Part shown: piece after piece, positions 47,953 to 62,778 of the stretch
Numbering within the stretch: position 1 is the stretch's first letter
How the letters are laid out: each line of letters starts with the position of its first letter
From: an uncultured Planctomycetota bacterium
Lineage (GTDB): Bacteria; Planctomycetota; Planctomycetia; Isosphaerales; Isosphaeraceae
Direction: 5' to 3'
Length of the DNA: 64,000 nucleotides
NCBI GenBank assembly: GCA_963823665.1
Contig: CAWGMQ010000005.1
Coordinates: 256,001 to 320,000 of the forward strand
The notes under the pieces: model-generated
The model's input: the letters and a program-made list of their open reading frames with translations, nothing else
What the model was told of the DNA's origin: nothing
Database searches by the model: none
Program-made: the position numbers and the translations under genes

Positions 47953-49839
47953 CTACCGTCGCATCGACGCCCTACGCGAAGCCTCATCAAGCGTCGGCCG
48001 GATGCTGGTAACCTCGAGCAACACGAGTTCGTTGCGCTTCATGCTCGTCTCGCGTAGCAACGGCTTGGTGCGGGTGGCGAGCTCGGCGGCGAACAGCTCG
48101 TACTGGCGGTCGCGGATCAGCAAGTAACGCGCGAGCCCGTCGCGACGGTCCAGCCAAACCAGGAGCGCCTGCTTTTCGCGCGCCACCCGTTCGGCTTCGA
48201 GCCCGGCGAGCGTCTTGGAGTGACGCCGCTTGCGCAGAAAGCTGCGAGCCAGATCAAAGGCGGTGTTGTAGCGGGGATGAGTCTCCGGCACGGGTGCCAG
48301 ACGAAAACCCTTCGCGTAGAACCAGAGCCCTTCGTCGATCTCGTTGAAGAACATCAACGTGGGTGTGGATGAGGTGCCCGAAACGATCCCATCGAGCTTC
48401 TCCGCCACTGTTCGATGGCCACGTGCGGCGTTCTCCTGCGGAGCAATCTGTCCGTAAGCCACCAGGAATCCGACCACGCACGCGGCAGCAAGGGGCGCAA
48501 GTGCAATCGAGCTTCCTCCCCTCCGCCACGTTCGAGCACTTGCGGCGACCGCAATCGCAATGACCAGCCCGATGACCAGGCACCACGGCCAGCGGTCGGC
48601 TTCGACCTGATCGCGTGCCACGATCGGGGCCACAGCCGCCGCAACGAAGAACAATACCCACTGCGCTTGCAAGAGGCTTCGAGCCGCGATCGATTGGCCT
48701 CGCTTCGCCGGCCGACGCCCCGCCCTGCGCCAGCTCGACCCACGCGGCGCCGATCAGCAATGCCATGCCCGGCACGCACGGGACGTAATAGTTGGGCTTG
48801 GCGACCGACCAGCAGCAGAAAACAAATAGATTGCCCACACCCCACCACCACGGGAACCAAAGGTACGCGGATGGTCGCGCTGGCTGGGCTTGCCCCACAT
48901 TGCGCTCCGAAGTTCGTTCTCTCCTCGCGAGAAAGAAGGGCAGGATTGCTGCCACCGGAGCGATCATGGACCAGGGCAGGACCATGCCGGGCCATTGTGT
49001 TGCGAGCAACTGGTGGCGGCGGTGCTCGAGTATCTGCGAGAACCCGATTTTCTCCGACATCTCCAGGGCCCAGACCCGCGCGGCCGCCGAGTCCTCAAGC
49101 AGCACGGCAACCGGCCAGCTCATGGCCAGCGCGGCGAAGATCAGAACGCCCCGGACCGCTGAATAAGCGTCGCAGATCCCCATGCAAGACGGCGGCCTGA
49201 CGCAAGGTACGGGACCAGAGTCACGCCCGCGAGCAACAGGATGATCGGGCCCTTGGTCAAGAACCCCAGGCCGAGCGCACAGTAGAACAGCAGACACCAG
49301 CCGATCGCGCCGGCCGGTTCCGTATCTCGAGCAGCGCCAGTTGTGTGATCGCCCGTGGGTGACCTATCACTCGCTCGCTCCAGCCTGCGCCAGGCCGCAT
49401 AGAGCGCGAGCGTCGTGAAAAACGCGAGCGGACCGTCGTTGCTGGCCTGGCGCATCTCCCCGACAAAGAACGCCGACGAGCAGAGGACCAACCCGGACGC
49501 CAGGGCGAGCTCGCGGCCCCCCATGCGCAATCCCAACGCGTAAATGAGCGCAACGGTCAGGGCACCCGCGATCGCACCGGGAAGCCGCACGATCCGTTCG
49601 TCACGGCACCCGGTCAGCTTGATCAGAGCCGCGATCGACCAACGCGGCAGCGGCGGCTTCTCAAGTCGAGGTCGACCCTGAATCTCGGCAACCAGCCAGT
49701 GGTCGTGGTCGACCGTGTCGATCGCCTCGGCCGCTGCCCGCTGCTCGCGCTTACCCCAGAGCTCGACCGAGCCCAGACAGCCCAGGAAGGCCGCCAGTGC
49801 CAGCACCAAGAGCAGAGCCTCGGGCCACCATCGTCTCAT
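47953..49839 (-). CDS. ArnT/GT83-like integral membrane glycosyltransferase; frameshifts near 49170 and 48720
   Basis: LWGKREQR, PRLEKPPLPRW, VRLPGA, LGFLTKGP, KPNYYVPCVP. Confidence 0.85.
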
Positions 49840-49979
49840 ATGGGCCGGCAAGCTAACCGATCTGGCTGCTTTGGGCAATGGCGGAAGGCTCGGCGTTCGA
49901 CGCCGCGCTCACTGCGGGGTTTCCAGCTCACCAGCCCGAATCGCCAGCGAGGCGCCCCCTTCGCGCGAGGCCATGCTCA

Positions 49980-52277: not shown

Positions 52278-53699
52278 ATGCTGATGAGGACTAAGAGCCA
52301 TATCTCGGTCCTCCCCAAGCCGAAGCGGGTTCCCCACCAGCAGTACCTGCCGGCTCACTCCGCCGCGCCGGACCCTGTGCCGCCGCCGGAGCGCGGTCTC
52401 TTTCCGGGTGAGCCCGAGAACTGCCGCCGCCGCCTGCGCCCGTTTCTGCGCAACCTCGCTTTTCTCGGCCTCCTTCTCCTCGTCTTCAAGGTTTTTCGCA
52501 TCGAGGAACGCGCCTACCAGGGGCGAGCCTTCCAGACTCTGGCAACGCTCGCCTTCCTGGCCTTCCCGGTCCACTATCTGAGCCCCTACCGCTTCAAGAA
52601 GCCGGTCTTCCTCGCCGTATCGATCGTCGGACTGTTCCTGGTCTTCGGAGCACTCCTGGCCGGGATCGTGCTCGCCTTTGCCGCGGTCTTGATCGGCGTT
52701 TGCTTTCTACCGATAAGGTGGTCTGCCCGCGCCGCGATCGTTGCCGCGATCGCCATGGCCTGCACGATCGCACGGCCTGGACTGGCAAACGCGGTTATTC
52801 CCGACGCCGTCTGGGCGATCGTCGCGTCGATCTTCATGTTCCGGATGATGATCTACCTTTATGAGCTCAAGCACGCCCGGAAGCCGGAAGGCCTGGTCGA
52901 TACGCTATCTTACTTTTTCCTGCTGCCCAATTACTGTTTCATGCTCTTTCCGGTCGTCGACTACCGCACGATGCAGCGCGGCTACTTCGCCCAGGATGTA
53001 CATGCCGTGCAGGAGCGCGGGCTCGAGATGATGTTCCGCGGCACGATTCACCTACTCTGCTACCGCTTGATCTACCACGACTTCTTGATTCCGGCATCGA
53101 AGGTGCACGACCCGGTCAGCCTGGCCACCTACCTCGTGTGCAACTACCTGCTCTACCTCCAGGTCTCAGGCCAGTTTCATATGGCCGTCGGCATGCTGCA
53201 TCTCTTCGGCTTTCAGCTTCCGCAGACCCATCATCACTACCTGCTGGCGAAGAGCTTCACCGACTACTGGCGACGGATCAACATCTACTGGAAAGATTTC
53301 ATGGTCCGCCTTTTCTTTAATCCCGTGGTCTTCCAGCTCAAGCGATGGCCCCAGCCTCTGGCTCTGGCAATTGCGACCTCGATCGTCTTTCTGGCCACCT
53401 GGCTCCTGCACGCATACCAGTCGTACTGGCTGCGCGGAAGTTGGGGGTTCTCGGTCACGGACGCGCTGTTCTGGGGAATCTTGGGCGCCCTGGTTCTTGT
53501 GAACGTCCAGCTCGACGCGCGCGGCAGCCGGTCCCGCCCCGCGAGCGACCGGGTGGTCCGTTCGAGCCGTCATCTCGCCATTTCCTCGTTGAAAGTCGCC
53601 GGAACATTCGCCACGGTCACGGTCTTGTGGTCCTTGTGGTGCAGCCCCAGTCTCTCGGCCTGGCTGGACATGTTTCATCGAGGGATCTATGGGTCATGA
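52278..53699 (+). CDS. MBOAT family membrane-bound O-acyltransferase (DltB/AlgI-like, divergent)
   Basis: SFTDYWRRINIYWKDF (variant of FWRRWHISL), TWLLHAY with putative catalytic His, YLQVSG; many TM helices. Confidence 0.85.
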   Translation: MLMRTKSHISVLPKPKRVPHQQYLPAHSAAPDPVPPPERGLFPGEPENCRRRLRPFLRNLAFLGLLLLVFKVFRIEERAYQGRAFQTLATLAFLAFPVHYLSPYRFKKPVFLAVSIVGLFLVFGALLAGIVLAFAAVLIGVCFLPIRWSARAAIVAAIAMACTIARPGLANAVIPDAVWAIVASIFMFRMMIYLYELKHARKPEGLVDTLSYFFLLPNYCFMLFPVVDYRTMQRGYFAQDVHAVQERGLEMMFRGTIHLLCYRLIYHDFLIPASKVHDPVSLATYLVCNYLLYLQVSGQFHMAVGMLHLFGFQLPQTHHHYLLAKSFTDYWRRINIYWKDFMVRLFFNPVVFQLKRWPQPLALAIATSIVFLATWLLHAYQSYWLRGSWGFSVTDALFWGILGALVLVNVQLDARGSRSRPASDRVVRSSRHLAISSLKVAGTFATVTVLWSLWCSPSLSAWLDMFHRGIYGS

Positions 53700-54934
53700 T
53701 TCGCGCATGACCAGGCAGATGCTGGTCGTCGTCCTCATTCTTCTGTCCGGCATCGTGCCCGAGCGGCTGGCCGGTCTCAAGGCGTCGTCGCTCCGCGACA
53801 GCTTGAAGAGCAACCTCTTCAACCGTGCTGACCTCGAGCGCATGGAGCACGGCTATTACGAAGCGCTGCTTGACCGCGGCCGTCGCCTGGACGACCTGGC
53901 CGAGCTGCCCACGATGCGAGTGCGGTGGCGCTCGGGCAGCACGTGGTCAATCCCCGTCGATCAGTCGCCGCTGGTGGTTCGAGTGGACGACCTGCGCGAG
54001 GTCGTGCTCAAGAAGAACGACGCCACGACGCGATTCGGCCTCGACTGGCGCACCAATTCACAAGGAATGCGCGACCGCGAGTATTCACTCGAGAAGCCGC
54101 CCGGAACCTTCCGCGTGGCCTTGGTCGGCGACTCCATCGGCGCCGGCTGGGGTGTCAACGCCGAGGATCGATTCGAATCGATCCTCGAGGAATTGTGGGA
54201 CAAACGTGCCGGCGCCATTGCAGGACGCAAAGTCGAGTTCATCAACTGCGCGGTGCCGGGGCATTCGCCGGGCCAGCGCTGGTATCACTTCGGCCTTCTC
54301 GGCTGGCCCATGGAACCCGACCTTGTGATCTATGAGGCAACCGCCGCGGACATCGGCTGGGACGAGCGCCGCCTACGATTCCTGCTGGCGCGCGGCATTG
54401 GCTGGGACTGCCCCATCTACCGTGCGGCTCTGAAAGCAGCAGGTGTGCAGCCGCTCGGCAGCCCCGATCATTACAAGCGAGCGCCTCCAGCCCAGGCACT
54501 GGGAGATCCTCGCGGGAGTTTATCGATACATGGCGGCCGATTGTCGCGCGCGGGGCGTGCCGGTCTTCTGGGTTCTCGTACCGCGGATCGGACGGCGCGG
54601 CGATGCAGAGGGCAAGCCTGCCCTGATCGAGACCGCTCGAAAAGCCGGGTTCGCCGGCGTGATCGACTTGACCGATGCCTTCGACGACCTCGACCCGGCT
54701 CGCCTCACGGTCGACCGCGACGACTTTCATCCCAACGCCCTGGGCCATGCGCGCATAGCCCAGAGGCTCGATCAGGCGCTTGAGCCGATCCCCCAGGTGG
54801 CAAGGATCTGGGAGACGGCAACCGCCTCGGAGAACGTTGGGCGGCTGGCTCGAAGCAAGGAGCCCGACACCGAGCGCCTCGATGAACAGGTCAAAGCAAC
54901 GAGCTTCGCTCCTGAAGGCGGAGGGCGGCCATGA
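53689..54934 (+). CDS. SGNH/GDSL-like protein 1; frameshift near 54490
   Basis: TNSQGMRDREY, ALVGDS, INCAVPG, DDFHPNALGH. Confidence 0.85.
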
Positions 54935-56286
54935 TGAGCACATTCAACATGGGCGGGGTTGCCAGGTCGCGGATCGGGATCGTGCAGTCGATCGCCTTGC
55001 TGGCGGTGGCGACCTTGCCGTGGCCCGCGCGCTGGGAGCGAGTTCGCGGCGCGGTCGATAGCGCTCGCTCACCCGAGCTGAACCGCGCCGAGCGCGAAAA
55101 CCACACGTGGAGCTACTACGATGCGTTGATCGGCAGCCCTGACGGATCGAGCAGCGACTCGACGGTTCGCTTGACGGGCAAGCCCACGGGCTCGGTGAGC
55201 TTCCGGGAAGCCGACGTGGTCTCCTACCTGGACGACGACTTCCTCCAGTTCGAGCTCAAACCGTTCCTTTCGCGCAACCTCTTCGGCCAGCCGTTCCTGA
55301 CCAATGCGTTTGGTATGCACGACGCCCCGATCTCGATGGCGAAGCCCGAAGGAACCGTGCGCATCGCCGTTCTCGGCTCGTCGATGGATATGGGCTGGGG
55401 CGTGCGCTACCAGGAGACGTACATCAACAAGCTCGAACAGTGGCTGGATCGCCACGCCGGCATGCAACATTCATCCCCCCCGCGGCGTTTCGAGGTGCTC
55501 AACTTCGCGGTGGCCGCTTACAGCCCCATGCAACGGCTCGAGGTGCTGCGCCGCAAGGTCATGGCCTTCGATCCAGACCTGGTCATCTACTCGGCGACAA
55601 CCCTCGATCTCCGGCTCATGGAGATTCACCTCTGCGACATGCTGCGTAAGAACGTCGATCTCAAGTATGATTTTATCAGCCAGGCCAAAACGCTTGCAAA
55701 TATCGATTCCGATGACCTGCAGCTTGACCGCGACGGAGACCTGCTCAACAAGGATCGGGTCAAGAGGAAGCTGCGGACGGTTTACTGGTGGCTCTACGAC
55801 TTCACCTTCGGTGCGATCGCCTCCGAGTGCCGCGGGCGGGGCATTCCCCTCGTGATGGTGATCATACCGCGAGTGGGCAAGGCCGACGTACCGTCCCTGC
55901 GCATCGAGCCGGTGGCGCGGCTCAAAGCCCTGGCCGCTCATCAGGGGATCACCGTCTTCGATCTTTCGGATACATTCGATCAAATTGACCCGGCCAAGCT
56001 CGAGATCGCCGCCTGGGACGACCATCCCAACGTGCTCGGGCACCACCGGCTGTTCCTGGCCTTGGCGCGTGCGCTCGTCAAGGATCAGGACGTTTATCGC
56101 TTGCTGTTTCCGCGGGATGAACCACCGCGAATAAACCGATCGGCGTCCGATCAAGCCCTGGCCCAGGGCACGCGCGACGACGCCGTGACGCGCGCCGGAG
56201 CCCTGGTCCCTCGATGTGCAAGGGACCTGCCCAGGCTCGACAAGATCGTCGTGTGCGAAAAGGATGATGTATTCATACCGCAATGA
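54931..56286 (+). CDS. SGNH/GDSL-like protein 2
   Basis: TNAFGMHD, AVLGSS, LNFAVAAY, DDHPNVLGH; ATGA overlap. Confidence 0.85.
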   Translation: MMSTFNMGGVARSRIGIVQSIALLAVATLPWPARWERVRGAVDSARSPELNRAERENHTWSYYDALIGSPDGSSSDSTVRLTGKPTGSVSFREADVVSYLDDDFLQFELKPFLSRNLFGQPFLTNAFGMHDAPISMAKPEGTVRIAVLGSSMDMGWGVRYQETYINKLEQWLDRHAGMQHSSPPRRFEVLNFAVAAYSPMQRLEVLRRKVMAFDPDLVIYSATTLDLRLMEIHLCDMLRKNVDLKYDFISQAKTLANIDSDDLQLDRDGDLLNKDRVKRKLRTVYWWLYDFTFGAIASECRGRGIPLVMVIIPRVGKADVPSLRIEPVARLKALAAHQGITVFDLSDTFDQIDPAKLEIAAWDDHPNVLGHHRLFLALARALVKDQDVYRLLFPRDEPPRINRSASDQALAQGTRDDAVTRAGALVPRCARDLPRLDKIVVCEKDDVFIPQ

Positions 56287-56304
56287 GAGGCGGATCACAC
56301 GCGT

Positions 56305-57906
56305 ATGGTAACCCGGCACCTGAGCCAGTTGCTCGAACAAGCGGCCGCCGCGCGGCCCGACCACACCGCCGTTCTGGACCAGAACGGCCGCTGTTTGAGC
56401 TACGCCGAGCTCGAGCGCGCCTCCGCCGCGCTCTCCATCCAGCTCACCCGCTGGGGCATCGACCGCGGAGATCGCGTCGGCCTCTGGCTTCCCAAGAGTC
56501 TTGAAGCCGTTACTGCGATTCACGGCATCCTCCGCTCGGGAGCAGCATACGTACCGGTCGATCCCACGGGGCCTGCCATCCGTGCCGCCGCGATCCTCGC
56601 CGCAAGCGACGCAAAGGCCGCCGTGATCTCGGCCACGCTGGTGCCGTCTTTTCGCGCGGCCTGGCCGAGCGCCAAGCCCTTCCCACGGTTGATCGTCGTC
56701 CAGGATGAGTGCGGCGCCGCGGCAGGTGCCATCGGAGCAGAAGACGCTCCCTATAGCGAAGTTGTCTCCGAGCGGCCATCGGCATCGAGCGCCGCCTCGC
56801 GCGACCGCGACGGCGACGACCTCGCCTACATCCTCTTCACGTCGGGATCGACGGGCGTGCCCAAGGGCGTGATGCTCTCACACGTGAATGCATTTACATT
56901 TATTGACTGGTGCTCGAGTGCGCTTGGGCCGTGGCTCTCGGGCGATCGCTTCGCGTCGCATGCCCCGTTCCAGTTCGACCTCTCGATATTCGACCTCTTC
57001 GTTGCTTGCCAGGCAGCCGCGACGCTCGTGCTCCTGGGTGAGTCACTGGGAAAAGATCCCGCCGCACTGGGCGATTTCATCGCCCAGGCGAAAATCAGCG
57101 TCTGGTACTCGGCTCCCACAATTCTTGCACTCCTGGCGCAGCAAGGGCGGCTCGATCGCCCGGGCATGCACTCGCCGCGGCTGGTGCTTTTTGCGGGCGA
57201 GGTCTTTCCGATTGCAGCGCTCAAGCAGCTTCGCGGGCTCTGGCCGGAAGCCTCGCTCTGGAACCTCTACGGCCCGACCGAGACCAACGTGTGCACCGCG
57301 TACCCCATACCTGCGACGATTCCGGCCGATCGCACGGTTCCCTTCCCGATCGGCAGGGTCTGCCCGCCACTTGAGGCGCGGGTGGTTGACGAGCAGGGCC
57401 GCGACGTGGCTCCGGGCTCGCTGGGCGAGCTCGTGATTGCCGGACCGGGCGTGATGCGCGGTTACTTCGGCCAGCCGGAGCTCACGTCGGCCGTCTTTTT
57501 CACATATGGCAAGACCCGCTGGTATCGCACCGGCGATCTTGTATGCGACGACGGGGGCGGGTGTTTCCTCTTCCACGGCCGGCGCGACCGGATGGTGAAG
57601 AAGCGAGGCTACCGGATCGAGCTCGGCGAGATCGAGTCGGCGCTCTACCGGCACGACGGAGTCGATCGCGCCGGAGTGGTTGCCCAGGCCGACGAGGTTG
57701 GCATCTCGATCGCCGCGTTTGTCGCGCTCAAGCCCGATCAGAAGAAGTCGATCATTGCCATGAAACGCCATTGCATGAGCTATCTGCCAGCTTACATGAT
57801 TCCGGATACGTTCACCTTTCTGGACGATCTGCCGAGAACCTCGACCGACAAGGTTGATTACCAGCGATTGAGATCCTTGGCTGCCCTGGAAGGACTACGC
57901 CCGTGA
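56305..57906 (+). CDS. Stand-alone amino-acid adenylation enzyme (NRPS A-domain; DltA/PltF-like)
   Basis: LAYILFTSGSTGVPKG, FDLS, FAGE, NLYGPTE, YRTGD, RGYRIELGEIE, LPRTSTDKVD. Confidence 0.93.
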   Translation: MVTRHLSQLLEQAAAARPDHTAVLDQNGRCLSYAELERASAALSIQLTRWGIDRGDRVGLWLPKSLEAVTAIHGILRSGAAYVPVDPTGPAIRAAAILAASDAKAAVISATLVPSFRAAWPSAKPFPRLIVVQDECGAAAGAIGAEDAPYSEVVSERPSASSAASRDRDGDDLAYILFTSGSTGVPKGVMLSHVNAFTFIDWCSSALGPWLSGDRFASHAPFQFDLSIFDLFVACQAAATLVLLGESLGKDPAALGDFIAQAKISVWYSAPTILALLAQQGRLDRPGMHSPRLVLFAGEVFPIAALKQLRGLWPEASLWNLYGPTETNVCTAYPIPATIPADRTVPFPIGRVCPPLEARVVDEQGRDVAPGSLGELVIAGPGVMRGYFGQPELTSAVFFTYGKTRWYRTGDLVCDDGGGCFLFHGRRDRMVKKRGYRIELGEIESALYRHDGVDRAGVVAQADEVGISIAAFVALKPDQKKSIIAMKRHCMSYLPAYMIPDTFTFLDDLPRTSTDKVDYQRLRSLAALEGLRP

Positions 57907-58912
57907 GGCGATTCGACACGCCGCAAAAACGACGACTCTCGCTGAGCACGACGCGGATGCGCCACGTGTTCTCGTGGAAGTTCGTTTTTTACGACCTGCT
58001 CCTGCCCGCGCTGCGAATGCTGGGCGCGACACGCGGCGACGCGATCCTCGGTTTGCTGGGACGGCTGGTCATGGCCGTTCGGCCACGGCGCCGTAGGGAG
58101 TCTGCGCCTCGCTCAAGCGAGTGAAGCGTGCGCTCGACGCCGAGTGGTCGATCGAGACGACCTGGCCGGCGCTGGCAGCCAACACCGCCAGGTTCCTGGC
58201 CCGCGACTATCCGCTCGATCGGCAGACCGACGAAGCTGTCTTGCGCCGATTTGACGTGTGCGGCTACGAGCGGTTAAGCGCGACGCTTGCTGACGGACGA
58301 GGCGCGATCCTGGTCGGCAGCCATCTTGGAGCCCACATCGCCGGCGTGCACTGGCTGTTTCGCCGCGGTGTTGCCGTGAGGCTCCTGGTTCAACGTCCCA
58401 GGCACGTTTCGGGCGAGCTGAATCGGCGGTTCGACGCCGGCGGGCGACACCCCCAAGCCGAGATGTTCCTGCGCCGCGATCTGTCCCGGGCGGTGGCCGT
58501 CGAGCGCGTCTTCCGGGCCCGGGCCGCGCTGCGCGATGGCATGGCGATCTACCTGAACGGCGACATCCCCTGGAACGGCCCCAATACCTGCGCCGGCAGG
58601 CTGCTGGGCCGTCCTCAACGCTTTCTCGCCATCTGGACCGAGCTGGCCGTTTTAACAAGTGCGCCGGTTTTCCTCGTGTTCTGCACGCATTTGCCCGGTG
58701 GCCGGTTCGCGCTCGAGCTCGAAGCCATCGGCCACTTACACGCCGGCGAGGAGGAATCGGCCGTCGCCGACTACCTGAAGCAACTCGAAGCGCGCATCGA
58801 GGCCTCACCCGTCGACGCGGTCGCCCACCTGGGCTGGCCATGTTACGTCTCGCCCCCGGCACCCGGCCACCGGCCGTCGAGGCGCAGGTCGTCCATAGCG
58901 AGCCGGCGCTGA
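57903..58912 (+). CDS. LpxL/HtrB-like (lipid A/lysophospholipid) acyltransferase; frameshift near 58100
   Basis: GYERL...GRGAILVGSHLG, ALRDG.AIYLNGD, LLGRP, LEARIEASP. Confidence 0.75.
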
Positions 58913-59068: not shown

Positions 59069-59778
59069 GTGTCCGACAATTTGGGCTCTTACGCCGGGAA
59101 CTTTTTTTTCACACGTCCAAGGCGTCGCGAATTGACGGCCGCTGATGACCTTCTGTACTCCGATGGATTTGCTTTCCTGCTAGCCTGTTGCTTGGATCGC
59201 GGGATGCAATCAGAAATCATCGGGAGGATTCCTTATTACCTGAAAAGGGAGCTCGGTCACCTTGACCCTGTGCGGATCGCCGAGATGTCATTAGAGGTGA
59301 TTCGAAACGCTCTGGAACGATTGCCGCAGAAACCGAGATACATGCATGAGGCTCCGAACACGGTTTCAGAACTGGCGGAGATCATTGCACGAGATTTCGG
59401 GGGCAGGCCAGAATCGCTCTGGGAAGGGCGCTCGCCCCGAGACATCATTCGTACGCTCCGGAGAATACGAGGCGTGGACACGATCGCGAACATGACGGTG
59501 AACCTATTACATCGCTATCTCGACGTGGAGTTTCGCCTCGAGGACCTATGCCACATCGACGTCAAGCCTGACGTGCATGTCGAACGCGTCTTCTATCGAA
59601 CGGGCCTGATGGATCGTGCCGGCCGATCAGTTGAGGCCGCGCGCAACTGAATCAATCGTATCCGGCGGCTCTTGATCTCGGGAGTTGGGAAATCGGGCGT
59701 CGCTGGTGCGCTGCGATCAACCCAGATCATGAGCGGTGCCCGTTGTCTGCAATCTGTCCTCGCAAGAACACAAGTTGA
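59069..59778 (+). pseudogene. HhH-GPD/endonuclease III-related protein, probably 5'-truncated, frameshift near 59640
   Basis: LRRIRGV..IANM (HhH), KPDVHVERVFYRTGL; the shifted frame gives LDLGSWEIGRRWCAAINPDHERCPLSAIC (Fe-S loop). Confidence 0.7.
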
Positions 59779-59902
59779 ACTTGGAGTCGATGCTTTTCCA
59801 CAGGCCCGCGTGCCTTTTGCGTCGTTCGCGAGCTTCGCCCCTCAGTTGAGTCGTTTGCGTCTTTTGACAGATTGTTTAGATCAACGTCGCTGAAACCTGC
59901 TC

Positions 59903-59940
59903 TTGACCCATTACCGTCCATCTTGTATTATATTACAAGA
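59903..59940 (+). promoter_or_regulatory. Sigma70 promoter overlapped by an operator palindrome (toxin-antitoxin autoregulation)
   Basis: TTGACC (59903-08), 17 nt, TATTAT (59926-31); TCTTGTA-N6-TACAAGA at 59921-59940. Confidence 0.75.
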
Positions 59941-59959
59941 CTCGGGGGGGGGGACGGTC

Positions 59960-60250
59960 ATGGGCCGAGTGGCTTTCATTTGGGACCTCGAAGATGACGT
60001 GGAGGGGAATTACTGGCACATCTGCGTCGAAGGCCATGGTGTCACCCGCGAAGAGGTCGTGTCGGGGAATTACGAAACTGCGACGCAGAGCCGGAGCAGT
60101 GGTCAGCCTGTGGCGTTCGGCTGAACGGCAGGCGGCAAGTACCTGACGGTCGTCTTTGAGTGGGTGTCCGACGACCCTTTCACCGTCTACCCGATAACGG
60201 CCTACGAAGTCCCGCCGCCCGGTCCCAGAAAACCGAGGAGAAAGCGATGA
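59960..60250 (+). pseudogene. BrnT-like type II toxin with internal TGA at 60122-24
   Basis: FIWD...N..HI..HGVTREEV, SRSSG..VAFG*T..GKYLTVVFE...VYPITAY; the frame continues to a stop overlapping the antitoxin ATG. Confidence 0.7.
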
Positions 60251-60684
60251 GCAACAGTAATGACAAAGGGGATAAGGATCGACCCAAGATCCAATGGAAC
60301 GCCGAGGATCGGGCCCGCCACCGAGCTACGCGTGACATGTTCCGAAACTGGCATCCTTCTCCCGAAGAATTGATCGCGAGCGGCGAGGGGGCGAGTTTCG
60401 ACATCCACGGCGAGTATCGCGAATTGCGCCCATTCATCGAGGAGATCAAGCGGGCTCGCGAGGCGGCGGGACTCACCCTGGCTGAGGTGTCCCGGCGATG
60501 TGGCATCGACCAGCCAGCGCTCTCCCGCCTGGAGAATGGACACAACAAGAATCCGACGCTCGACACGTTGTGGCGTTATGGCGCCGCGGTCGGCCGCCGC
60601 TTGGTCCTGAGCACTAAACCGATCCGCGACACGCGGCCAACGTTAGGCGGGACCAAGCGCATCCGAGTGGCACGAGAGACATAG
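60247..60684 (+). CDS. XRE-family HTH antitoxin/regulator
   Basis: IKRAREAAGLTLAEVSRRCGIDQPALSRLENG.NKNPTLDTL. Confidence 0.88.
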   Translation: MSNSNDKGDKDRPKIQWNAEDRARHRATRDMFRNWHPSPEELIASGEGASFDIHGEYRELRPFIEEIKRAREAAGLTLAEVSRRCGIDQPALSRLENGHNKNPTLDTLWRYGAAVGRRLVLSTKPIRDTRPTLGGTKRIRVARET

Positions 60685-60879: not shown

Positions 60880-62778
60880 CTACGGCTCTCCGTTCATCCT
60901 CTCCGGAATTCGGTGCGATGTCGATAGTGGCGGGGGCAAGGGCCAACCGGGTATGCCGGCATCGGCCGGGGCTCGCCCTGCTCGGATCGCCGCGGCGGCT
61001 CGCCGATATTCCGAAGCACGCTCGTTGCGGAACTTGGGATCGTAACGGACATAAGCGGCGGCGCGGAAGAACCCGGCGTCTCGCGACGCAATCTGCGCCC
61101 ACCGCTTCGCGTCGATGCCGAAATGGCGAGCACACATCTCGGCGGTGACCACCGGTACCGGCGTTCCCGCCGGCCACGAAAAGGCGCGGCGCCCGGCGAG
61201 TTGATTCATCAGGTCCTCGGCCAGCGCGGCGTAGCCCTGAAGATTGGGATGCTGGGCATCGTGGAAGAACTGGCCGCCAACGATCCCGTGCCGGCTTCTC
61301 GACTCGAGCACTTTCGGCCCGTCGACCAGGACCACCGAAGGGTGCCTCGCCGCGACGTTACGATACGCCTGCCGAAGCGGCTCCGGACAACGCAGAGGCA
61401 TTCCATCATGCTCTCGCGCTTTGATGTAGTGCTCCCTGGCTTCGTCCCAGAGCCCGGTTTGCTCGAGGAGCCTGGCGAGACGGTAGTGTGTCTCGGCGAA
61501 CTCGGGATGGCGGTTCACCAGCTCGCGGTAGATCCGCCGCGCTGCGGCGGGTTCTTTCTCTTCAACCGCTCGGGCGTGGGCGACTTCTCTGGCAAAAGCG
61601 TCGCGCTCGGCCCGAGGCGTCTCCGGCGCCAGTACCGAGCGGCTCGGATCGAAGCCGGCATCATTGCCGGGCGGGATGACGTAAATCGGCAGGGTCCCGA
61701 TCGACTCGCAGTAAACGGCGATCGATTCCAGCCGGCGCTCGAAGTCGTCGGTGATCGCCTGGAATTCGGCGGCGGTGCAGACAGGGCGATCGACCAGCTC
61801 CCGCGTGACAACGCGCGGCGGCAGCGAGTCGAGCCGTTGCCGCTCGCGGGTCTCGCCAAGCAATTGCAAGAGTGGCGAGAACTCGAGAATGGAAGCGATT
61901 CCCGACAGGCGGGCGACGCGCAGCGGCACCGGGTCGTCGTCGAGATAGTGCGCGACGTCTCGCATCCAGGCGTAGCGCCCCTGGAATTCGTTGTGCCCGA
62001 CGTACACCATCAGGGCGTCCGGACGATAGTTCAGCCCGTCGAGTTTCTGGTGCATCATCGTGAGGGTCGCCCCGCCCTCGGCCCACATATCGACTTCAAT
62101 CGCGCTGCCCGGAAAGACTTTCTCCATGCGCCATGCAATGATCTGAGCGACCGAGAGCCAGGGGTGGTAAGGCTCGCCGCGGGCGCTCGACTCGCCGATC
62201 ACGAGCATTCGCAACGGCCGAGCCGCGCCGTTCGAGTTCGCTTCTCGGCCCTGGAATCGGCTCGGTAGCGCGGGAGTTGTTCCCTCGGAACCGAGCCGAT
62301 CACCCTCACCGGCTGGTTCAGGCAGCACGGCGACCGCCGGCAGATCGGGGCTCCGGTTCAGCCGCGCCCGCCAGCCAGCGGCGCCGGCCTCGAAAAGGCC
62401 GAGTGCAAGCAATGTCGAGCAGCAAAGCAAAAGCAGCCTAGCCTGCAAGAAGCTCTTCCGCCCATCCGGACGCGCAGACCTCTGCCTCGCAGATCGAGTT
62501 CGCGCTCTCAGAGCGACCAGCACGAGCGCACCCAGGAACGCCACGATCAGCGTGAGAGGATAAGCGATCAAAAGCGCGTCAACGAAAAAGATAGCCGCCT
62601 GTCTGCGCAGCAGTGCCGTCTCGCGACCGGAGACAACCTGAATCCAGCCCGGCACGAGCTGGAACGCAGCATAACCAGCCACGCCAAGCGCGATGAAAAG
62701 GAGTAAGCGAATCGCACGACGCAGAGTGAAACGACGAGCGGAACTGGGCGAATTGGAGATTTCTGGGTCCGACATCAC
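60880..62778 (-). CDS. Membrane-anchored SGNH-like protein with TPR insertion
   Basis: Three N-terminal TM; VIGESSARG, YVGHNEF, TPR AETHYRLARLL, HDAQHPNLQGY. Confidence 0.8.
   Translation of the reverse strand: MMSDPEISNSPSSARRFTLRRAIRLLLFIALGVAGYAAFQLVPGWIQVVSGRETALLRRQAAIFFVDALLIAYPLTLIVAFLGALVLVALRARTRSARQRSARPDGRKSFLQARLLLLCCSTLLALGLFEAGAAGWRARLNRSPDLPAVAVLPEPAGEGDRLGSEGTTPALPSRFQGREANSNGAARPLRMLVIGESSARGEPYHPWLSVAQIIAWRMEKVFPGSAIEVDMWAEGGATLTMMHQKLDGLNYRPDALMVYVGHNEFQGRYAWMRDVAHYLDDDPVPLRVARLSGIASILEFSPLLQLLGETRERQRLDSLPPRVVTRELVDRPVCTAAEFQAITDDFERRLESIAVYCESIGTLPIYVIPPGNDAGFDPSRSVLAPETPRAERDAFAREVAHARAVEEKEPAAARRIYRELVNRHPEFAETHYRLARLLEQTGLWDEAREHYIKAREHDGMPLRCPEPLRQAYRNVAARHPSVVLVDGPKVLESRSRHGIVGGQFFHDAQHPNLQGYAALAEDLMNQLAGRRAFSWPAGTPVPVVTAEMCARHFGIDAKRWAQIASRDAGFFRAAAYVRYDPKFRNERASEYRRAAAAIRAGRAPADAGIPGWPLPPPLSTSHRIPERMNGEP

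Follow-up and report, generated by a model that had tools for sequence, protein, structure and literature searches.

The 64,000-nucleotide window analysed here (G000:C5:256001-320000, part of a 16.5 Mb genome in 12 contigs from an uncultured planctomycete of the family Isosphaeraceae) carries a five-gene operon for a divergent MBOAT acyltransferase (gene 1), two SGNH proteins (genes 2 and 3), a stand-alone adenylation enzyme (gene 4) and a PF03279 acyltransferase (gene 5). Together with a carrier protein and a dehydrogenase encoded elsewhere in the genome, these genes would form a split system by which the Isosphaeraceae envelope is decorated with an acyl group made from proline, pyrrole-2-carbonyl being the most likely one, a reading to which we assign a probability of roughly 55% from sequence evidence. 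The gene content, gene order, motifs and co-occurrence underlying it are direct observations. An earlier model-made annotation of the same DNA (the sequence-only reading) had proposed an uncharacterised surface-acylation pathway in a probable planctomycete. Its outline stands, as a conserved, undescribed and carrier-dependent envelope acylation in which a PF03279 transferase is combined with an MBOAT-SGNH relay, with a different acyl group.

Conservation of the block was assessed in 24 genomes of the family and 16 other genomes of the class, and in a GTDB scan that confirmed 529 MBOAT relatives, the best 80 of which provide the locus counts. These divide into 12 loci titled as other phyla and 68 family-type loci, four of which (L237, L242, L243 and L247) are titled as another taxon or have no taxon in the title and were placed there by sequence identity. 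The two samples overlap and the family genomes are kin; the counts are descriptive. Gene 1 has a match in 23/24 family genomes and a weak one in 2/16 of the others, the ligase encoded by gene 4 is present in 22/24 versus 0/16 (E ≤ 1e-70), and a gene 5 ortholog (E < 1e-60) in 21/24, with no match in the 16 others. The ligase gene is found in 49 of the 68 family-type loci, 44 of which also hold gene 5; three of the five ligase loci lacking gene 5 end at contig ends, and gene 5 never occurs without the ligase among the 68. Because the MBOAT gene is accompanied by the ligase gene as well as the PF03279 gene in 44/68 family-type loci, the five-gene block is conserved across Isosphaeraceae far beyond chance. 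Two SGNH genes are present in 32 of these 44 full loci and one in the other 12, the single gene being of the gene-3 type in every case (12/12). The 19 family-type loci that lack a ligase are either truncated by contig ends or additional MBOAT loci, and most have a single SGNH gene. An additional MBOAT locus of this kind is present in this genome (59% identity; L043:6309-8743, at G000:C5:1484248) with one gene-2-type SGNH gene, no ligase and a variable neighbourhood, and similar loci occur in Singulisphaera (L192, L197, L202, L203).

Outside the family, the MBOAT was found in at least 6 of 300 other Planctomycetota genomes, a count to be taken as a floor given the stricter first look of that scan. 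A compact form places the MBOAT, SGNH (fused or separate), carrier, ligase and acyl-CoA-dehydrogenase-fold genes in one run in 5/6 Planctomycetota loci, and the 12 other-phyla loci include a carrier in 11, a ligase in 8 and a dehydrogenase in 8. Of the syntenic block and linked carrier to be looked for according to the sequence-only reading, the block does co-occur, while the carrier is encoded elsewhere in this genome and within the operon in the compact forms.

The substrate is indicated by gene 4, which passes TIGR01733 and, against single-domain solved proteins, scores 329 bits with PltF, 239.5 with PigI and 222 with DltA; restricted to the pocket region, the same comparison gives 128.8, 97.4 and 66.0 bits. 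With positions assigned by the standard GrsA scheme (Table 1), the pocket reads DLFYLALVCK, compared with DLLYLALVC in PltF, DLFYIAWVC in PigI and DLMTMCTVA in Bacillus subtilis DltA, corresponding to identities of 8/9, 7/9 and 3/9. The pattern DL[FL]Y[LF]ALVC is kept in 21/21 aligned orthologs, and this genome's own DltA has the pocket DVMVLCTIA. Both the pocket and the best matches are those of type II L-proline adenylation enzymes (PltF/PigI). These features argue strongly that gene 4 activates L-proline and is neither DltA- nor AlmE-like.

A Dlt- or Alm-type transfer of D-alanine or glycine, the kind of system with which the sequence-only reading compared the operon, consequently appears highly improbable. 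Gene 4 does match DltA models among its higher-scoring NCBIfam hits and the MBOAT fold is nearest DltB, but the score against the DltA model TIGR01734 is about half its cut-off (281.7 versus 559.85), the pocket is far closer to PltF, entry 4oxi, presumably of the AlmE type, scores 149.6, and a true dlt operon is present elsewhere in the genome. This canonical dltD-dltX-dltA-dltB-dltC operon is complete (L090:9229-13860, G000:C5 about 1204200-1208900); its DltB, DltC and DltD pass the NCBIfam cut-offs, and its 58-residue DltX ends in FIYQNF. DltB is above cut-off in only 3/41 genomes, and this planctomycete lineage is not known to have teichoic acids.

No carrier gene lies in the window, as had been noted from the sequence: all 24 matches of PF00550 in the genome lie outside it. 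As a carrier finder this search missed the relevant gene, which was detected at G000:C10:1963456-1963701 with a compact-operon carrier as query (52% identity, match at C10:1963462); the genome's other stand-alone acyl carrier proteins (ACPs) were considered and set aside. The PDB neighbours of the carrier are 2my5, the 6cxt carrier and PltL, with DltC and PigG lower. It occurs in 23/24 family genomes, whole copies scoring 100-130 bits against a best outside score of 62 bits. The linked carrier is not DltC; homologs with 43-61% identity lie within proline-MBOAT operons, and in L226 the carrier gene and an SGNH gene stand divergently beside a family-type MBOAT gene. A carrier tree was weakly supported (a 32-row group at 92/88 with two long-branch outsiders inside), and identity and gene context were used instead. 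Second copies of the proline-type carrier are directly followed by an SGNH-like membrane protein without a Pfam match (L177:7441-9152, L178:8683-10201), and L074:1294-1647 encodes an ACP-like domain after a CPxCG zinc-ribbon-like stretch.

The carrier also passes NCBIfam NF052616, 'ornithine lipid biosynthesis ACP' (142.2, cut-off 130). We read this label as taken from the gene neighbourhood, because the carrier gene, on the strand opposite olsI-olsG-olsH, is convergent with olsH and because its homologs belong to proline-MBOAT operons. In the available parts of the ornithine-lipid study PMC12493201, OlsH needs neither ACP nor CoA, the donor of OlsI is left open and an NF052616-type carrier gene is not mentioned. 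The carrier may serve OlsI as donor. Directly upstream, on the same strand, 10/16 carrier loci have a PF01663 alkaline-phosphatase-superfamily gene (for example L169:14862-16445 and orthologs) that is absent from this position in this genome.

The dehydrogenase gene, in two pieces at G000:C10:36850-37996, is 45% identical to its compact-operon query. When an intact ortholog from the family was compared with solved structures, AnaB (408 bits), the 6cxt oxidase (319 bits) and PigA (293 bits) scored highest. The available text of PMC10849742 identifies the 6cxt oxidase as Bmp3 and describes how a ligase, a carrier and an acyl-CoA dehydrogenase yield a carrier-bound pyrrole by 4-electron oxidation. 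Orthologs are present in 23/24 family genomes and 0/16 others (nothing above 228 bits there), and the catalytic-Glu motif is found in 23/23 dehydrogenase loci. The protein stays below the RedW and PigA equivalog cut-offs, and by clade and catalytic Glu it groups with the pyrrole-forming prolyl-carrier dehydrogenases. It is encoded within 13 kb of the carrier in 5/24 family genomes and in 3/5 isolate genomes checked. Because a co-occurring dehydrogenase suggests an oxidised group, the aminoacyl group proposed in the sequence-only reading is probably not what is transferred. In the compact operon L093 the best PDB match of the halogenase is PltA (397 bits), which fits a pyrrolyl-carrier. The compact operons L093:628-11000 and L094:9154-19073 add genes for an O-methyltransferase, for a halogenase resembling PltA and for a radical SAM protein with a fused dioxygenase-like domain, a set that suggests a tailored halopyrrole.

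A relay moving unoxidised L-prolyl or a 2-electron-oxidised pyrroline, with aromatisation absent or partial and a charge-modifying effect like that of Dlt and Alm, is a rather unlikely alternative to the pyrrole. It would agree with AnaB as the nearest relative, with the absence of linkage between dehydrogenase and operon in 68/68 family-type loci, and with the lack of a PltA-type halogenase beside family loci, where the only matches (22-24%) resemble other flavin monooxygenases. The near-complete retention of the dehydrogenase in the family speaks for oxidation to pyrrole instead, as does its co-operonic position in the compact forms, one of which includes the PltA-like halogenase.

Transfer across the membrane would begin with gene 1, which gave no Pfam (E 0.01), NCBIfam or PDB sequence match. 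Its structure model (predicted local distance difference test score of 74.6) returned MBOATs for 9/9 Foldseek matches at E ≤ 0.001, DltB first, at a template modelling score of about 0.5. Aligned with this genome's DltB by hhalign (82.6%), gene 1 places His378 (53409-53411), invariant in alignments A1 and A4, on the His of the DltB GLWH motif; an RRxNIYW motif is also present. Gene 1 represents a divergent MBOAT clade missed by the Pfam model, in agreement with the family to which it had been assigned from the sequence. This clade has 1381 relatives among 50%-identity cluster representatives (637 at E ≤ 1e-30), and among the best 150 of these, 117 of 149 new sequences are MBOAT-SGNH fusions of 800-970 residues. 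Gene 1 stands alone here, and its counterparts are SGNH-fused in most relatives outside the family.

Genes 2 and 3, also named correctly as SGNH proteins, have weak GDSL/SGNH matches, and PF13472 is above cut-off in the gene-2 ortholog of L194. The catalytic residues are near-invariant over the three groups (gene-2 type, gene-3 type and fused), with Ser at 99-100%, Asp at 93-100% and His at 98-100%. Gene 2 has one N-terminal membrane helix, a GYYE motif and GDS...DDFHPN; gene 3 has a membrane helix, a SYYD motif (55111-55122) and GSS (Ser151)...WDDHPN (Asp363, His365). The two types are 30% identical and form separate supported clades in a quick tree. The YY pair, located about 25-45 residues past the membrane helix, is conserved in 17/17 gene-2-type proteins, 20/20 rows grouped as gene-3 type and 117/117 fused proteins. 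According to the available text of PMC12148441, the known acyl shuttle is the tyrosine of an FxYxxF motif on DltX or on the MBOAT C-terminus. Here, this C-terminal motif is found in 0/109 stand-alone MBOATs and 0/117 fused proteins, and neighbourhood clustering revealed no conserved DltX-like small open reading frame (ORF). The MBOAT C-terminal tyrosine was rejected as a shuttle: GIYGS is not conserved, and a Tyr lies within the last eight residues in only 60/109. The invariant YY is a candidate for a DltX-like shuttle; in the simplest model, each SGNH protein would carry its own and dock on the MBOAT. Since both SGNH proteins carry a shuttle candidate, they are suggested to be alternative partners rather than an AlgJ-to-AlgX chain. 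Of the expected likeness to the Dlt membrane proteins, the DltB-like fold is confirmed, but genes 1-3 match neither the DltB (TIGR04091) nor the DltD (TIGR04092) model, and the SGNH alignment gives 1.1% against this genome's DltD.

Gene 5 scores 35.9 bits against PF03279 (cut-off 22.3), and its intact L194 ortholog 40.6. The LpxL-like label given in the sequence-only reading holds at this family level and fails at the catalytic dyad: the His is invariant (34/34), but the fifth position of HxxxxD/E is hydrophobic in the 34 rows listed, where LpxL has H132/E137 in the available text of PMC6286764. Invariant downstream Asp and Arg residues are retained and may match D192 and R159 of LpxM. The nearest solved relative is a mycobacterial phosphatidylinositol mannoside acyltransferase (E 9e-9, compared with 0.13 for LpxM), an enzyme that puts a fatty acid on a glycolipid mannose. 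The clade was found solely in Isosphaeraceae among the genomes searched, and the genome separately holds lpxC and a canonical LpxL with HYGNWE. A gene-5 homolog is found in none of the 12 other-phyla MBOAT loci, some of which are cut short; given this and the tyrosine shuttle candidate, the lipid-linked intermediate considered in the sequence-only reading appears unneeded.

Gene 5 could instead be a fatty-acyl-ACP transferase that makes or matures a lipid acceptor or a lipid-linked intermediate for the MBOAT-SGNH relay, a possibility that we regard as unlikely. In most of 16 paralog loci, the gene-5 paralog is linked to genes for a ketosynthase and an ACP and to lptF/lptG, which suggests that the clade can use fatty acyl-ACP near lipopolysaccharide genes; the presumed activity of its nearest solved relative and the compact operons without gene 5 would also agree with this role. 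On the other side, gene 5 goes with the ligase and not with the MBOAT in the rearranged locus L245, and no ACP or ketosynthase is found near it in the loci examined. We put the odds that gene 5 uses the proline carrier at about even. The paralog operon itself (L088:3923-12567, L263-L275), which is conserved in the family, has lptF and lptG together with genes for a ketosynthase, an ACP, an aminotransferase and a membrane protein that includes a phosphatase-like domain; the PF03279 paralog is present once or twice. The operon looks like a unit dedicated to long-chain acylation of lipid A, by analogy with AcpXL/LpxXL.

The acceptor is likely an envelope glycan. Outside the family, where 31/69 neighbours chosen by look were scanned in 11 loci, 6/11 loci have polysaccharide genes within 5 kb, encoding priming or GT4 transferases, Wzy, a MurJ-like flippase and pyruvyl transferase; L096 is surrounded by glycosyltransferases, a Wzx-type flippase and a sulfotransferase. 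Within the family the indications are weaker: an ArnT/PMT-type glycosyltransferase gene is divergent upstream in 23/44 full loci, and 13 of the carrier loci have a polysaccharide-export gene next to the carrier. Production of a small secreted or periplasmic metabolite, in which the SGNH proteins release pyrrole-2-carboxylate by hydrolysis or use a small molecule or protein, not a polymer, as acceptor, seems very improbable: the PDB sequence neighbours of the SGNH proteins are generic GDSL esterases and natural-product clusters typically contain the proline trio, yet no polyketide synthase (PKS) or nonribosomal peptide synthetase (NRPS) gene lies beside the carrier or the dehydrogenase in the loci viewed, and the compact forms are often among polysaccharide genes.

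In the pathway favoured here, gene 4 would adenylate L-proline and load the remote PltL/Bmp1-like carrier, a step for which the pocket argues strongly, and the prolyl-carrier dehydrogenase would oxidise the bound prolyl group to pyrrole. By analogy with Dlt and PatAB, the MBOAT His378 would pass the acyl group through the inner membrane to the GYYE tyrosine of either SGNH protein, each combining the functions of DltX and DltD in one chain. The SGNH serine would then accept the group and esterify a periplasmic or surface glycan, the two paralogs probably serving different acceptors or positions. The weakest step, at about even odds, is a branch at the cytoplasmic face in which gene 5 would take the group directly off the carrier and acylate a glycolipid, for instance lipid A, at a hydroxyl of a sugar or of an acyl chain. 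The fullest version, a family-wide pyrrole-2-carboxylate decoration in which one carrier feeds two routes, a relay to surface glycans with GYYE as a third kind of tyrosine shuttle and a repurposed LpxL-family enzyme yielding pyrrolyl-lipid A or a pyrrolyl-glycolipid, is tentative and doubtful as a whole.

Several observations weigh against a pyrrolyl modification of the envelope. The carrier and dehydrogenase genes are 1.9 Mb apart in this genome, on a contig other than that of the operon, and the carrier gene adjoins the ornithine-lipid operon olsI-olsG-olsH. The dehydrogenase is nearer AnaB than the pyrrole-forming Bmp3 and PigA, and AnaB stops at a pyrroline in its own pathway. Gene 5 is separated from the ligase in genome G014, as is an additional copy of it in G003, and its closest paralog (34% identity) is part of the conserved ketosynthase-ACP-transferase-lptF-lptG operon. 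A glycan locus reliably linked to the operon was not found within the family, and the fused MBOAT-SGNH gene L098 has no proline trio alongside. Finally, the kinship of the family genomes means that the co-occurrence counts overstate independence.

The layout of the operon is given in Table 1. The five same-strand genes described in the sequence-only reading are present, with overlaps of 11 bp (genes 1/2) and 4 bp (genes 2/3) and a gap of 18 bp ahead of gene 4, but genes 2 and 5 are each split into two ORFs by a frameshift. Alignment with a locus of 83% DNA identity shows a single surplus base in gene 2 near 54480 and a single missing base in gene 5 near 58101. Because similar single-base breaks occur elsewhere in the genome (the upstream ArnT-like gene, the dehydrogenase gene, dltA and lpxL) and orthologs are continuous (gene 2 in L194 and L029, for example), both frameshifts are likely assembly errors. 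Among 12 candidate sequencing runs (best share 0.18), which included no RNA data, four were compared: a base is missing at 54483/54484 in two contigs of relatives, and no indel is seen near 58101 among the rows listed. Judging by the starts of its orthologs, gene 5 more likely begins at 57957, 50 bp past gene 4, than at the overlapping GTG at 57903.

Table 1. Features of the acylation operon and its surroundings (positions in the 64,000-nucleotide window)
Feature	Position	Strand	Basis or remark
Gene 1, divergent MBOAT, 473 aa	52278..53699	+	fold search, hhalign, alignments
Gene 2, SGNH protein 2, accessory type	53689..54934	+	GDSL/SGNH match, motifs, orthologs
GYYE motif of gene 2, candidate tyrosine acyl shuttle	53851..53862	+	role inferred
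Gene 3, SGNH protein 3, core type	54931..56286	+	GDSL/SGNH match, motifs
Gene 4, stand-alone adenylation enzyme, predicted L-proline loading, PltF/PigI type	56305..57906	+	PDB scores, pocket
Gene 4 pocket residues D225 L226 F229 Y268 L295 A297 L321 V329 C330 K516			
Gene 5, PF03279 acyltransferase (LpxL / mycobacterial PatA family)	~57957..58912	+	PF03279, ortholog starts
ArnT/PMT-type glycosyltransferase gene, three pieces	47953..49878	-	divergent, upstream of operon
HhH-GPD-like fragment and helix-turn-helix (HTH)/toxin-antitoxin-like gene	59069..60684		between gene 5 and SGNH-TPR gene
Membrane-anchored SGNH protein with TPR repeats	60880..62778	-	convergent with operon

Among the flanking genes, the ArnT/PMT-type glycosyltransferase is uninterrupted (604 aa) in L028, and the SGNH-TPR gene is within the locus in 9/44 full loci. 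The HhH-GPD-like fragment and the HTH/toxin-antitoxin-like gene are absent at that place in the same-genus locus L028.

No description of the operon, or of pyrrole or proline acylation by an MBOAT, was found in the literature searched, whose coverage leaves out most subscription papers. If the proposed function is correct, natural-product pyrrole chemistry would be joined to envelope-polymer acylation in a surface modification not found in that literature, and pyrrole-2-carboxylate, so far known from natural products, would act as an envelope decoration. It would also give the acyl-shuttle tyrosine a new position in MBOAT-SGNH systems and provide a function for the carrier now labelled as an ornithine-lipid ACP. 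The pathway is testable in Singulisphaera acidiphila, where the operon is intact (L194), carrier and dehydrogenase genes are present and gene deletion has been achieved according to the available parts of PMC12493201.

Taken together, the system would work like Dlt, yet it lacks defining features of Dlt, PatAB and LpxL. As in the Dlt system of Firmicutes, there are a stand-alone adenylation enzyme, a carrier donor, an MBOAT catalytic His, a membrane-anchored SGNH protein and a probable tyrosine relay. Unlike Dlt, the ligase is of the proline type, a dehydrogenase is added and a PltL-type carrier replaces DltC; DltX and FxYxxF are missing, the YY being on the SGNH protein's own anchor helix, and an MBOAT only about 20% identical to DltB is accompanied by two SGNH paralogs and an extra PF03279 enzyme. 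The ligase pocket, the carrier and the catalytic-Glu dehydrogenase are shared with the pyrrole trios (PltF/PltL/PltE, PigI/PigG/PigA, Bmp4/Bmp1/Bmp3, AnaC/AnaD/AnaB), whereas here each of the three is encoded at a different site, and the trio is tied to a membrane acyl relay with no downstream PKS or NRPS. An adenylation enzyme followed by a PF03279-family transferase is also the arrangement of Vibrio AlmEFG, which glycylates lipid A with an A-domain protein and a transferase of that family; the present system differs in its proline pocket, remote carrier, oxidase, MBOAT-SGNH genes and family-restricted gene 5 clade. PatA/PatB and AlgI/AlgJ/AlgX likewise pair an MBOAT with one or more separate SGNH partners outside the inner membrane. 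In the available text of PMC12148441, PatA/PatB and AlgI-type systems use an acyl-CoA donor and carry FxYxxF at the MBOAT C-terminus; here, by contrast, the predicted donor is a carrier, the MBOAT has no FxYxxF and a shuttle candidate is found on both SGNH proteins. What appears to set the operon apart from all of these is an envelope acylation of the MBOAT-SGNH kind whose donor is of the natural-product type, whose shuttle candidate is in a different position and to which a family-specific transferase is added.

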